NCBI GenBank assembly: GCA_964016885.1
Contig: OZ024751.1
Coordinates: forward strand, 38,688,001 to 38,752,000
Direction of reading: 5' to 3'
From: Eledone cirrhosa
Taxonomy: Eukaryota
DNA: 64,000 nt
Within the stretch, counting starts at the first letter, position 1. Each line of letters begins with the position of its first letter. The translations under genes were made by a program, and so were the position numbers. This document shows, piece after piece, positions 11,331 through 47,378 of this stretch. Under the pieces are notes generated by a model. It searched no databases. It saw only the letters and a list, made by a program, of their open reading frames with translations, and had not been told where the DNA came from.

Positions 11331-11532
11331 AACGAAGGAAATGTGGTAAGGAACCAGGTGGACCATAACGCACCAAAGTACTCAATACTTAGGGTAGTAG
11401 AGTGGGTAATAGGAACGAGTAGGACCCCGACGGCTGAGCTCAAGCCGTTTCGACGGCTAATTCTGAACTACTCTTAGTCCAGAATTAGCCGTTTAAACGG
11501 CTTGAGCTCAGCCGTCGGGGTCCTATTCGTTC
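11331..11532 (-). mobile_element. Family A TA-embedded Penelope-pLTR-like element, copy A1
   Basis: Flanked by (TA)n. Tail 11331-11411; inverted arms 11412-11470 and 11475-11532. Contains the hammerhead 3' half GAAACGGCU-UGAGCUC-AGCCGUC. Homologous to 16259, 31516 and 35819. Confidence 0.85.
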
Positions 11533-11858
11533 ATATATATATAAATATATATATATATATATATATACATATATATATATATACATATATATAAGGTTTC
11601 CAGGTATCTTATCAAGGCTAAGAAGAAATGAAACAAACCAGAATGAGGCTCTTATATATCTTTCTTTCAAGTATATTATATCTTTGTCCAGGCAAAGAAA
11701 TAATGTACTTGTTTCTTTTCTCTTTTCCACCGCCTACAAATTCATCATCTGTATCATGAGCTTTGACGTCACTTGGCATCATCATCACCATCATAGTGCT
11801 CCTCATGGTCATCAACATCATGTATATTAAACCGTTTTATTTTCATTTAAAGGAATCA

Positions 11859-11930
11859 TTATCATCATCATCATCATCATCATCATCATCATCATCATCA
11901 TCATTATTATTATTATCATTATTATTACTA
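11859..11930. repeat. (TCA)n/(TTA)n trinucleotide repeat
   Basis: Direct reading. Confidence 0.9.
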
Positions 11931-14900
11931 TTTATTGCTAATATTCCCATCGTTATTACTACTATTATTTTTAATATTCAATATTAATTCTATTAATATT
12001 ATTGATATTTTATTCATTACTGTTATTATTGTTATCATTGTTAATATTATTATTATTTACTTTTCGGTGTTATCGTCGTTTTTGTCGGTAATAACTTTAT
12101 CAAATTATGTTCCTTCTTAATTTAATTATCCGATTTCTTGCCTTTGATGTATTCTATGAAATATCATCGGAATAGCCTTTTTAATTGTTAACTAAAAATT
12201 TTTTTCATGGCTTAAATTAATGTGATCTTGCAACAGTTCTTAGACAATCATTTGTATAGCGTTCAAGCTGGTATTATCACTTATTCTATCAACATCTACA
12301 TTGAAAACTAGCAATAATATTTCGAATATTTTTATGTACAAGTCAATAAATATTTCTGGGAAAGTGATTTTGTAGTATTGCTCCATAGAATTCGATATCA
12401 CTAAATAATGTATTGGTTTCTGTTTGTGTTTTTTGTGTCTTTTTTCGTCTTTTTCCCAAATATACACAAAATCCAATAAACCTGATACGGAAGTAGAAAA
12501 CCAATAACTTCCAGACAGAAAAAAAAAGAAATAAAGAAATATATAAATGTTCTTAAAGTTAAAATAAATAACATATGGTCTGAATATAGGATGTCTTGTA
12601 GTGTGTCGTATAAGTAATATTTCAGTCGCGGTTCTGTTTATGTTCTGTTTCATATAAGTTCTCTGTAACTAATGATTTCCTTCGTATGTACCTTAGGGCA
12701 AGTTGAATGTATGTTTACAGTACACTTGCAACTCTTTCGAAGGCCATGAACGATACAAATATACATTTAACCTCTTGTCCAAACATATTCACCATTTAAA
12801 GATTTGTAGTATATATATATATAAAAGAATGTTTTGGTAAATCTCACTCAAAATCTTTGTTCAGCTTTGTTTAGGCTACTCAAATCAATCATGGCCTCAT
12901 CTGGATGCAATCCATATATGAAACATGATGGTTAAATTTAGATGGATGTTTAGGAAATGAGTGTTAAATACTCCGCACAAAAATAAATAATTATGAATAG
13001 ATATTACCTTACAGAGCTTATTCAAAACAAATGATGTTCTGTTATAATAGTATTACTGATTAAGGGATATCAAAGTTATGATACCTGCATGGTTTCCTGA
13101 AATACATACTAACCATGGCAGATGGGATTAACACTGGATCACGATAACAATCACAAAAGTAGTTAATTAGACATAACTGACCATCGCAAATAGTGATACA
13201 TACTGAGTTAGTGTCTCGCCGGCAGAAAAGCCTGGGCTGATTGTTGGAATTCTACTTCTCCAATATACACACTTTCCATCTGTTCTTGTATCTAGTGCTA
13301 CCCACATTTATCTTTGCACATCAATGATTCCGCTTTATTCTGAACTTCTTCCTATCTACTTTATCTTGTCATTCAGAGAGAAAGACAAGATTGAGTAAAT
13401 AGCGTTTGAAACCTCAAATTTCTTTTCCTCCGAGTCCTTTTCTTTCATATGACATTCACACCATTCGCTTAAAAGACTAACCGAGAACAGGATTATTTAC
13501 ATTACGAATAATAAAACTGAAGGGAAAGTCATGTTATGCCTCTGTTTCTTTAGTCTTTCAAATCTATTTCTCTCGACCATTGACATCACATAATTTTAAA
13601 TCATATTGTAATAGCTTCTATCTGACGTTCTAATGAACATCATAGTGCCACCTTACATAACAGAATACAGTTATTAATCAATGCAAAAAGCATATATTAT
13701 AAATCCTTGTTTTATTACAATATACTATGAATATTATGAACTCATTTCATTATTAATAATTTATATATTAACTCGCTGACTACGAACAAATCCTATGGTT
13801 TAATTGGAAATAACCTGCTAAGTATTAAATGTCAATATGACTTTCTAAGTATTTTATGTATGAAATACACAAAGATTCAAATAATACAACTGCCCGAGAT
13901 ATGAAGAAAAGATTTCAACGTACACCAATACAAACATACACGTACATACACACTCCCACTATTTTTTTCTAGGGAGACGAACATTTTACATGAAATTTAG
14001 AACAACTTTAACATAATAGATAGATAATATACAATATTAAATTTTAGAAATAAAAAAAACAAAACAAATGTAATTGTTTTATCTCATAGGTAGATAAATG
14101 CGTGACAGATATCCACGTACACACATATACGTACGTGACTCTGTGTGTGTGTCTGTGAGTGTTTGTAATATTTTGAAAAATATATAAATATATGCGTAAT
14201 GTATGAATGTTTAACATATCTATGTATTCATTTATACAAGTGAATATCTAAGCAGAAACATATGCCTACATCAGTGTGTTTGTATATAGGTGCATATCAA
14301 TAAATATGTTTTCCGCAAGCATTCATAAAAATACATGCATTTATGTAAACACACACACACATTGTCCCACTGTGGCCAAAGTAGTGTTAAGCCAGTGTGA
14401 AATCACACACACTCACAGGTACATACACACACACACATACACTCATTATTGAAAGTGAAGAAATATTTCTGTCTTAGGAAAATATAAATAGTTATGCTAA
14501 AAGAAAAAAGAATACAATAGGTTAGTTTTACGTAAACACAGCATTATTTGTACAAATAAACTTTTGCAATAAATGTTAAAGTTCAGTACAACACTAGTAA
14601 CTAAAAGAAATTATCTAAAATAAAGCATTTATTTAAACAAACCATGTTTCTTCAGTGACCTTTTTGTTTAAAAACGCTTTTGTATCTAACAATGTTGAAT
14701 GATAAAAATGGAGATATGTTATATGAGATGTTTTCAAAAAGGGGAGAAACAACTATAAAAACAAGTTTGAAAATGAAACTGAAATAAACTTCAGAACTCC
14801 TTGAAAGTATAAAAAGTATAAAATTATATTTTATGATACAGTAAAAAAAAAACATATGTAAAGATTACAGCAAAATAAAGACAACGAATTCTGTTCATCT

Positions 14901-44597: not shown

Positions 44598-44765
44598 TAG
44601 CAGAATTGTGAGAGCTTCGGAAAATATGGTTTGTAGTATTATTTAGTTATGGTTCTTTACGTTTCCACGTTCAAATACCGCCGAAGTCAACTTTTCATTT
44701 CATCCTTCGAAGACTGATTAAATACATTACAAGTCGTTGGTGGCCTTTTGCTTAAATCAGAAGTA
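44598..44765 (+). mobile_element. tRNA-derived SINE (family 1)
   Basis: tagcagaattg..ag...tttacgttt...GTTCAAATACC(B-box-like)gccgaagtcaactttt..tttcatccttc. Confidence 0.7.
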
Positions 44766-46798
44766 ATTATCAATGTTATGTATATCATGTCTTCAATCTG
44801 TACGTAACTTATATAATTTGGTCTACACTTATGCTAAAGTTGAGTGCCGCATGTATACAGCAGTAAATCAGAAAATAATCTATTGAAGTATCAACTATCA
44901 ACACGAAATGAGGCATGTTATTTGAAATATGTAACATGTTATATTATTAATACATAATAGATTACATGTAGGGGTGAGGACTGAGGTCTTAATACGACAA
45001 ATACTTATATTTATTATTATATTTATGTATATGGAGACATATATAATATATTTTTTATTAACATTTTCAAAATTTTAGTTGTACAAAGAAAAGATTATTC
45101 CTAGTTTCACAGAAACTATAGCAAAATTCCCAGTTTTCACCTGAGGCATTTGCCAATTAGCGTGCCAACGGTCTCATTTACTGATATTCATGTATCTTAG
45201 CCTGGGGCTTATAATTAATTTGTGTACCCAATTAATTCTATTGCCAATAAAATGCTTAAGTTATAGGATTTTTTTTTCGTAAATATATTTCTGGAGCTTA
45301 AGCCGCTCTAATAACTCCATCTTAAAAATGAAGTTACTTGCTTAGTTTATTAATTGGACTCCAAGAAAGTTTTCCTAAAACTCTCTCTTCTTTATTTGAA
45401 ATGTTGTGTCTTAAATAAGATTGATACACTTCTTAAACTATGTTTCTATAAGTTTCTTTTTTAACAGAATCAATCCCAGAACTTTTGTATCAAATATTAG
45501 GTCATTCGACCTAATTGGTACATAATTACATATATATTTACTCATACACATCCATATACTTTTATTAAGGTCGTGTCAGTATCCTGATGTTGTGAAATCG
45601 TATATTTACAACTATATGGACTGATGAGCCTCCTAAACAAACATACAGGAGAAATTCCAGATTAACATTACACTGAATCGATTTAAAAACATATATAGCT
45701 TAATCTTTATCGTGTTACTGAGTTTTCTTTCCAACAACGGTTAATGAAAATAAACGATTATATATATATATATATATATATATATATATATATATATATA
45801 TATAGAGAGAGAGAGAGAGAGAGAGAGAGAGAGAGAGAGAGAGAGAGAGAGAGAGAGAGAGAGAGAGAGAGGGGCGAGGAAAAAGGAGTATGACAGATTT
45901 TGAGACAGAAAGAGAGAGTGAGAAATTACCAGATATTTTTGATCAGCTACATGGGAACTGATCAAATAAACCTCATGTCAAAAGGCATCCAAGCTGTGAC
46001 CAACACCTATTTTTAGTATATTCAGTTGCAGTCTATCTAGGATCTTCTGAACCCATGTGTAAGGCAGTGGAAAGACTCAGCAGAGATTAACTTGTCAGAA
46101 TCCGCTCAGTACAATAAAGAAAGTGTCATTTAAATCTCGTACATGTTGCTTTTAGTTGGTTGCTTAGCTACATGAGAGACAATTAAAGAACATTTCAATA
46201 TCAATACGTGCTCTTAAGTGTCTTAGATATTATGAGATTTTTCCAAATGTATTATGATTCCTGTGTATTCATGATATCTTCTTTACCACATGTGATGCAA
46301 ATACATAACACATTTTATGAATTTGCTTCTTGTTAAGTCGTATTAGCATAGGTTTGATTTGATATTACGAATATATTCAATTAAATGTTCCAGAATACAA
46401 AAAGAAAGTGTCTAGCAAAATCCTTGATATTTTATTTGTCGCTGAAAACTGTGAAACTGTTTTATGTTTAGCCGTAAGGATGATTTCATTGTGGAATTAT
46501 TAATTTTATTGCAAATATTAGATTTGATTTACGCGTAGAGCGTGTATTTTTTAAATGTCATTTTGTCATTGTTAATTTGTTCGTAAATACATGGAAATGT
46601 GACATTTTCTTTGCTAAGCCCACTCGCTCGCACACAGGTGCGCGCAGATATACACACACACACACATACATATATATATATATATATAAAGCGCAAGCAT
46701 ATACATGTTTCTATCTATGTATAAACACACACGCACACACACATTATATATATATAAATATATATAAATATATACATATATATATATATATATATATA

Positions 46799-47378
46799 GG
46801 CTAAACAGAAAAAAATGAATGGAATAACAACAACACCCAAACAAACAACACTGACCTAAGAGAAGTATAAATAAATAAATAAATAGATAAATAAATAAAT
46901 AAATACATGCACACGCACAATAACAACAAACACATATAAACACACACTAGTAAAGATAGAATACATTAACCAATACACAGTCACCCAATCAGGAACACAC
47001 CTCAAACAAAACACTATACACACACGCAAATGCAGGCGCAAAGAAGACAAAAAATAAACAAATAAATAAATATATAAATAGACTAAATAAAGATGGCATA
47101 GAAAATACAATGCAACGGGAGGAAACAACAGCACCACTGACGATGTTGCAGATGTGCAACGAAAGAACTTTGATAAACTATATATATGTGTTTGTGTCTA
47201 TATTGTATCTGTAGTTTTGACCGTTGTTCAGTCAATGGCAACATTGAGGACCGAATCAATTAGATTACTGATATAAAAGACACAGAAGCGAAAAGCGAAA
47301 ACCAACCAAACAGTGAGTGTGTTCTGTTATTAATTCTGGGAATATTACACAAATATGACCCTCCCCAAGTATAACAAT
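46799..47378 (+). mobile_element. Family C element, copy C2 (5'-extended), between (TA)n tracts
   Basis: 47030-47378 is near-identical to 20664-21008; hammerhead-like core at 47137-47164. Confidence 0.8.

Follow-up and report, generated by a model that had tools for sequence, protein, structure and literature searches.

The stretch analysed here (the window) comprises 64,000 nucleotides (nt) of the Eledone cirrhosa genome, contig OZ024751.1 of the 3.0 Gb assembly GCA_964016885.1 (G000:C11:38688001-38752000), and is rich in (TA)n, with 28% G+C. Ten short repeats in it had been read, from the letters alone, as tiny retroelements carrying hammerhead ribozymes (the original prediction), and all ten were found again. 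They are almost certainly short pseudo-long terminal repeat (pLTR) copies of five protein-coding families of Penelope-like elements (PLEs), three with the motifs of the Hydra clade (A, B and D) and two with those of the Neptune clade (C and C'). The families, the target, the tail and the hammerheads are of known kinds; insertion into (TA)n, hammerheads within the pLTR, pLTRs in inverted order and a tail on one side only have been published for such elements (PMC8557442). The new observations are a fixed, initiator-like 5' stop site of most short A, B and D arms and an untemplated G at the B junctions. The copies consist of one or two arms, as follows.

A1, 11332..11532, minus strand: Hydra-like PLE family A; tail-bearing arm 11332-11470 (minus), tail-less arm 11474-11532 (plus); 3' half of the hammerhead only.
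A2, 16259..16584, plus strand: subfamily of A; tail-less arm 16259-16416 (minus) with a complete hammerhead, U3-A8 core (TTGAAAA); tail-bearing arm 16419-16584.
C1, 20662..21007, plus strand: Neptune-like family C; lone tail-less arm with a minimal hammerhead core, CTGACGA, at 20771 and the start codon of the open reading frame (ORF) near its 3' end.
C2, 21041..21283, minus strand: family C' of the Neptune type; the arm with the tail spans 21041-21210 (minus) and the one without it reaches 21283 (plus); the copy does not extend to the hammerhead.
B1, 25280..25355, plus strand: Hydra-like family B; lone tail-less arm; hammerhead with a U4A core, CAGAAGA.
D, 25929..26116, minus strand: Hydra-like family D; tail-bearing arm 25929-26062 (minus) with a canonical hammerhead; tail-less arm 26063-26116 (plus).
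B2, 27980..28210, plus strand: family B; tail-less arm (minus) to 28048, tail-bearing arm 28050-28210; between them stands one centre base, a C at 28049, which on the tail-less arm is an untemplated G.
A3, 31516..31668, plus strand: family A; tail-less arm 31516-31569 (minus); tail-bearing arm beginning 3 nt before the predicted cleavage site.
A4, 35819..35922, plus strand: family A; tail-less arm reduced to an 8-9 nt remnant; tail-bearing arm from the predicted hammerhead cleavage site.
C3, 46798..47377, plus strand: family C; lone tail-less arm, from the last GIY-YIG ORF codons through the whole 3' untranslated region (UTR) and the hammerhead.

Six copies (A1, A2, A3, B2, C2 and D) have the layout that had been described, with a tail-less inverted arm and a tail-bearing arm. 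In addition, (TA)n adjoins every 3' end of the ten copies, and C1 is the sole copy without (TA)n on its 5' side, as had also been noticed. Positions within the elements are given below as negative numbers, counted in nt back from the last base of the tail. The arms of each family terminate at one of two 3' sites, either where the tail ends or at a boundary, which lies at -77 in A, -85 in B, -53 in C, -56 in C' and -74 in D. All five boundaries are TAT or ATAT, and in tandem copies TAT or ATAT also stands directly after the tail end. The tails measure about 77 nt in A, 85 nt in B, 74 nt in D, 53 nt in C and 56 nt in C'; tails of endonuclease-bearing (EN+) PLEs have been quoted as 30-40 bp, compared with 53-85 nt here.

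The wider genome was represented by an unbiased sample of 100 stretches of 10 kb (1 Mb), chosen by round coordinates and searched by blastn with one natural copy per family. Arms ending more than 15 nt short of any 3' end site and weaker overlapping matches were removed first; a few local duplicates were possibly counted twice. The sample held 103 arms, which amounted to 73 insertions per 1 Mb (A 24, B 15, C 12, D 12 and C' 10), and extrapolation gave about 220,000 insertions genome-wide (170,000-275,000). The predicted density of about one per 7 kb held for the window (1 per 6.4 kb), but the sample gave about 1 per 14 kb. The predicted preference for (TA)n was borne out: (TA)3 lay within about 20 nt after 93 of the 103 arms, compared with 1927 of 20000 random positions (9.6%; Fisher p 2e-81), and (TA)n was present at the arm ends in 35/37 (A), 17/19 (B) and 15/18 (D). 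A single TA tract often hosts stacked families, as C1 and C2 do. Kilobase arrays of interrupted (TA)n occupy 29432-31502, 34980-37450 and 55053-58449 of the window, and A3 and A4 lie inside two of them.

Exactly one tail was present in 29 of the 30 two-armed insertions of the sample and in 49 of 50 B junctions found by pattern. The inverted-arm layout is real, but the tail is not tied to one arm or to an arm length: it sits on either arm, long or short, and the arms range from 8 nt to several kb. Fixed terminal inverted repeats (TIRs) and identical ends, as expected of a DNA transposon or a miniature inverted-repeat transposable element (MITE), were not found, the tail making the ends differ in 29/30 pairs. 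The tandem order of pLTR, tail and body, with the tail continuing into the 5' body, was seen in loci L272 and L273 (B), L276 (A), and L121 and L123 (C'); the fetched loci showed no such order for C or D. Two larger local palindromes (L267:737-1242 and L221:2094-3429) duplicate whole insertions.

The original prediction suggested extending the longest copies 5', and this led in every family to an upstream ORF with reverse transcriptase (RT) motifs plus a GIY-YIG endonuclease at its C terminus, in the same sense as the tail. For B, a query made of the GIY-YIG stretch fetched 25 loci, and the B end lay downstream in 25/25 (one being the query's own); L271 holds a 709-residue open frame, and the element is about 3.4 kb long. 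For A, sense ORF matches lay upstream in 14 of 20 loci fetched by the 3' UTR, with two more on the inverted arm, and for C in 18 of 30 loci. The ORF was further found in L121-L124 and L129 for C', and in L131 and L135 for D. These ORF pieces were read as they lie, and frameshifts or stops break most copies. Of 8000 sequences scored in a search with the B protein, 2133 were relatives, and the top one with a name came from a mollusc; a PDB sequence search with the same protein gave 0 matches. Pfam placed GIY-YIG above the cut-off for C' and below it for D, and the putative RT is recognised by its motifs and homologues. No ORF piece was found by tblastn in the window itself at E 1e-3.

The proteins also changed the number and the relations of the families. 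Four families unrelated in sequence had been proposed; there are five, C and C' being distinct, and the ORF pieces of A, B and D are 52-56% identical in protein. C and C' have only their last ~80 nt in common, encoding the same N-terminal peptide, and their ORFs are 64% identical; in both, the start codon lies inside the pLTR and the tail encodes ORF residues 8-27, as it does in C2. Further Hydra-like ORFs, 40-60% identical to A, B or D, were seen at L130:4231-5982, L213:7360-8793 and in other sample loci. A further hammerhead family with a CTGACGA core was also present in sample loci, and the TA-targeting set exceeds five families.

The copies had been taken for non-coding PLE-derived or retrozyme-like mini-elements mobilised by a TA-specific PLE. 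The anatomy so described was correct: they are PLE pLTR structures with hammerheads, a tail on one side and a (TA)n target. Under the mini-element explanation, non-autonomous retrozyme- or MITE-like units would be transcribed and reinserted as such by a TA-specific helper. In its favour, A and D have more short than long copies, and short copies retain the putative start site and, for B and D, a complete hammerhead; non-autonomous PLE derivatives are known as well (PMC8557442; 10.64898/2026.07.22.740005). However, every family has its own ORF in long copies, which indicates that the short copies belong to autonomous elements and not to a non-coding guild. Furthermore, the junction centres differ between copies (20 centre types among 49 one-tailed B junctions) and are unrelated to the tail side, which indicates that every insertion produces its short form afresh and that no short unit is copied as such. 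The loci read contained no head-to-tail arrays of it, the arms are not fixed-length TIRs, and the short copies are without the stretch at the ORF start that the protein of the Anolis element requires on its RNA (PMC11167929). The mini-element explanation is thus largely refuted, and we regard it as highly improbable. The copies agree instead with EN+ PLEs in the RT and GIY-YIG ORF, the tandem or inverted pLTRs with a one-sided tail, and the type I hammerhead.

In A, B and D, the linker before GIY-YIG reads CxCx5C (CNCPDGSIC, CNCRNRVDC and CNCLNKEAC, respectively) instead of CX2-5CxxC, and CxxC and CxH surround the catalytic E/N. One Cys lies between GIY and YIG in A, one in B and two in D, while the Hydra clade has no CCHH pair. 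B carries RWR and DKT; the N-terminal parts of A and D are broken or missing in the loci read. By the linker and the CxxC and CxH motifs, A, B and D match the Hydra clade as defined by Craig et al. 2021 (PMC8557442), with which they share the C-terminal GIY-YIG, the pLTR hammerhead and the (TA)n target, and B also DKT and RW(K/R). A first reading as Penelope/Poseidon was given up when the linker motifs shifted the assignment to Hydra. (TA)n targeting and hammerheads were reported for this clade, with Hydra-1_Obim from Octopus bimaculoides among its members (PMC8557442). In the partial supplement text, the B N-terminus lines up, by eye, with Hydra-1_Obim and Hydra-1_Ajap. Nevertheless, Hydra-1_Obim is another family than A, B and D, with a different hammerhead and protein, and it is listed with 'no pLTR', while the pLTR, the tail and the inverted arms of A, B and D are plain, at tens of thousands of copies each. 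B, at ~3.4 kb, also exceeds the 'generally <3 kb' of the clade. A repeat paper on Octopus vulgaris counts PLEs, and hammerheads are unmentioned in its main text (PMC13282606).

The linkers of C and C' are CTNRKCIIC and CIDKKCITC, and two Cys lie between the GIY and YIG halves (CX2-5CxxC, CCHH type). By these motifs, C and C' match the Neptune clade, with which they also have in common the C-x4-C-x2-C linker, the Cys pair, a microsatellite target, a minimal hammerhead, the ORF start inside the pLTR and the coding tail. We take them to be Neptune rather than Nematis from the style of the motifs and the microsatellite targeting. C' differs from Neptune in an Asn-rich N-terminal insert, a long stretch before the RT seen at L121:4412-6073 and L123:3203-6343. 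Similar N-rich inserts have been reported in rotifer PLEs (PMC3846280).

A type I hammerhead core with its helices was found by pattern in all five families, so that the claim of one hammerhead per family stands at the family level. It does not extend to every copy, because A1, A3 and A4 are without the 5' half of the core, and C2, which starts at -169, does not reach the ribozyme some 215-260 nt from the tail end. The D hammerhead is canonical, and its helix I shows a compensatory change between subfamilies (AGATTC/GAATCT in 18, AGCTTC/GAAGCT in 5). The motifs of C and C' are minimal, helix III being tiny, like those described by Cervera and de la Pena 2014 (PMC4209133). The B core was CAGAAGA (U4A) in 156/156 pattern matches; U4A is absent from the variants in the accessible section of Perreault 2011, figures excluded (PMC3088659). 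A has a long helix II, with the core CTGAGAA (C3/A8) in 20/28 and U3-A8 in 8/28. The fixed U4A core of B and the helix II and cores of A set both apart from the Hydra clade, and the ribozymes of B (U4A) and of A with the C3/A8 core may be weak or dead. The suggested check against hammerhead models gave no match in Rfam: none was among the best 150 of 411 window-wide matches, which were swamped by microsatellite miRNA matches, five loci searched at the gathering score gave 0 matches, and three single hammerhead stretches gave none at E up to 10. Minimum free energy folds of single hammerheads missed the catalytic fold, as is expected for a weak helix III, and were left unused. The sequence CTGAAGTGAAA near the C' end was rejected as a hammerhead, the real one lying upstream.

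The 5' ends of the arms are not spread evenly. In the sample, 27/37 A arms start within -121..-142 (2 beyond, 8 shorter), 12/18 D arms within -123..-133 (3 beyond, 3 shorter) and 5/19 B arms within -152..-164 (6 beyond, 8 shorter). Among non-selected arms, the corresponding values were 73/108 within -126..-142 for A and 30/43 within -123..-133 for D. Genome-wide, exact head-to-head junctions at this wall numbered 3655 (A), 231 (B) and 226 (D), and reversed controls gave 0. The wall is an A within TCATTT and TTAGT in family A (-141 and -137), within TTAGTT in B (-159) and within CCAG(C/A)T in D (-132). An Inr-like (initiator-like) sequence in pLTRs was noted earlier by Arkhipova 2013 (PMC3846280).

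In B, and by eye in A, an untemplated G precedes the +1 A of the wall on one arm or on both. When B arms were picked by their natural upstream sequence, G stood directly before the +1 A in 0/46, and 35 read TTTGTT. Among the first 50 B junctions, in contrast, G on both arms with a linker of 1-2 nt was found in 16, a single central C/G in 16, and one G with a linker in 2; the remainder were blunt (5), had a single A/T (1) or had other centres (10, mostly natural extension). No junction had C on both arms, and the ratio of 16:0 for both-G against both-C gives p 3e-5. The untemplated G was thus on one arm in 18/50 and on both arms in 16/50. In A, by eye, G preceded one of the two +1 A positions in 19/50 first junctions, with 6 ambiguous. 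For libraries of complementary DNA (cDNA), it is accepted that an untemplated G upstream marks a capped template (PMC9245221). In the literature searched, which lay mostly outside subscription papers, no report of a cap-derived G at PLE inverted junctions was found.

The same G bears on whether the wall might be something other than a transcription start, namely a splice acceptor, a stall of the RT at the hammerhead fold, or the endpoint of later deletions that shrink palindromes. An AG adjoins each wall, and the intron of Drosophila Penelope ends at hammerhead helix I (PMC4209133). In B and D, the wall lies at the 5' edge of helix I, and many of the very short A pairs are collapsed onto the palindrome of helix III. 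However, none of these options adds a G that is absent from the genome. Moreover, no common exon-1 sequence precedes the G, the linkers being 1-2 varied bases, and in A a G also goes with a second start, that at -141, which lies upstream of the AG. We consider these options together very unlikely. A separate group of A arms starts at the predicted cut at -96, as A4 does: by eye, both arms did so exactly in 7 of the first 50 very short A pairs (298 places in total), as did 2/108 unselected A arms, and B and D had no such peak. The cut lies at the foot of helix III, which could also be a stall site, and these starts may reflect either hammerhead cleavage or RT stalling.

The position of the extra base relative to the tail is informative as well. 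Read on the cDNA strand of the tail-bearing arm, the B centres were single C in 9 and G in 7, and triple CTG in 6 and CAG in 5. Neither arm is privileged, because single and triple centres split about evenly by tail side. This independence of the tail side argues for two cDNAs from a capped RNA end and not for antisense self-priming. Self-priming on an antisense template has been proposed for rotifer PLEs (PMC3846280), and 'EN-mediated resolution' was proposed in PMC8557442. In such a fold-back, one cDNA (or an antisense template) would make a hairpin, and the endonuclease would trim one arm at an internal TA site. That would account for exactly one tail per pair, for the subfamily variants common to both arms in nearly all A pairs and for the palindromic centres, and the C-x-G centre might have arisen where the cDNA turned on a C copied from the cap. 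On the other hand, the lone extra base lies on the tail-less cDNA in 7 and on the tail-bearing cDNA in 9 junctions, and the 1-nt linkers split 6 against 5. Loops of 0-2 nt are too tight for a snap-back. Either arm may be long and reach the ORF while its partner is short, and the pair in L030, a single A insertion, has arms of two subfamilies. In vitro, both strands are extended from two sites (PMC11167929). We therefore hold a fold-back to be possible but unlikely. A T/C difference between tail-bearing and tail-less A arms (17 T/C pairs) had been considered as proof of two templates; it was rejected as a selection of later mutations, because T was the allele that the query picked, and both arms carry C in 3655 junctions.

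For the two-armed copies, we consider the joining of two cDNAs head to head probable as a whole. The element protein would cut both strands of a TA tract and prime one cDNA per cut end, each priming site presumably being served by one protein subunit. With one cDNA per site and the tail lying between the sites, exactly one tail would result. Both cDNAs would reach the capped 5' end of the RNA, the wall being the putative transcription start and the G the copied cap. Host end-joining would then join the cDNA ends head to head, with an insertion of 0-4 nt or microhomology. Because the pLTR-ORF junction, where priming would take place, is no more than 130-160 nt away from the messenger RNA start, short copies would dominate; for long arms, the source would be a downstream pLTR junction or read-through RNA.

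Among the closest known systems is Poseidon of Anolis carolinensis, for which Frangieh et al. 2024 (PMC11167929) found in vitro that both target strands are cut and extended and that reverse transcription begins at two internal positions, which flank the tail at the pLTR-ORF junction, likewise on an AT-rich target. Its RNA needs the ORF start, a dimer is predicted, and later steps were left open; the accessible text has no treatment of the joining of inverted arms or of a cap-derived G. Unlike the families described here, in which both sites lie on TAT/ATAT matching (TA)n, the Poseidon priming site is said to be non-homologous to the cut DNA. The A and D tails share a motif, CTC...TATTGAG(T/C)AC (window 11380-11405 and 25970-25990), and the record that precedes Hydra-1_Obim in the Craig supplement closes with the same motif words (PMC8557442). 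This motif is possibly a conserved RNA recognition element between both priming sites. The non-LTR retrozymes of Li et al. 2026 (preprint 10.64898/2026.07.22.740005) are alike in the type I hammerhead, the pLTR-derived sequence and the short copies without an ORF. Retrozymes are, however, non-coding head-to-tail tandem units with at least two whole hammerheads, whereas the present copies are head-to-head by-products with one tail, often with half a hammerhead or none, and their arms continue into ORFs.

Several points weigh against this interpretation. The transcription start and the cap are deduced from DNA, and the G could instead be a cap-independent terminal C addition by the PLE RT. The junction counts rest on exact patterns, which take in young copies only, and the detailed reads cover the first 50 places by position. 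In the unbiased sample the B wall is weak, in D microhomology masks the G in most listed junctions, and the A wall is in the alignments partly, perhaps, subfamily divergence upstream of -127/-140. The walls of A, B and D resemble what we take to be initiator motifs, but this consensus (TCATT, TTAGT) is that of arthropods and may not be the host's. C and C' showed no wall near the arm ends in the sample, which leaves the run-off step unsupported for the Neptune families. As for the families themselves, the link of D to its ORF comes from two loci, and Pfam reported no RT family in 7/7 pieces and no family at all in the B and A pieces. Both C and C' contain AA(A/G)ATGGCG (window 20724-20730; about -315 in L104), and the starts of several C' arms lie 0-15 nt upstream. 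This sequence, presumably a YY1-like site, may mark the C/C' promoter.

Two other dispersed repeats were noticed in the window. One, SINE-like (like a short interspersed element) by look and 82-87% alike among its copies, lies at 26695-26796, 49505-49712, 49837-50040 and 54494-54652. The other consists of short repeats with GGTGTC...TGTATACATTTTTTGG ends at 7617-7708, 20491-20583 and 23998-24072, which look like a TA-flanked MITE or a Tc1/mariner remnant.

The junctions bear on an open question, the origin of the inverted pLTRs and the one-sided tail of PLEs. On balance we favour the view that this structure represents two first-strand cDNAs, both run off the element's own capped messenger RNA and end-joined. 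In that case about two hundred thousand insertions in this genome would record the cap as an untemplated G and map promoters to the base, and most insertions of the Hydra clade would be short products akin to a strong stop and not 5' truncations at random points. A cap-like G on both arms, whichever of them bears the tail, would supply the missing step and can be tested in vitro with capped and uncapped RNA. It is likely that the short hairpin copies, of which there is about one in every 14 kb, are wrongly labelled as MITEs, SINEs or simple repeats. These elements would also be a major origin of the palindromes and hammerhead motifs found in animal genomes rich in TA.

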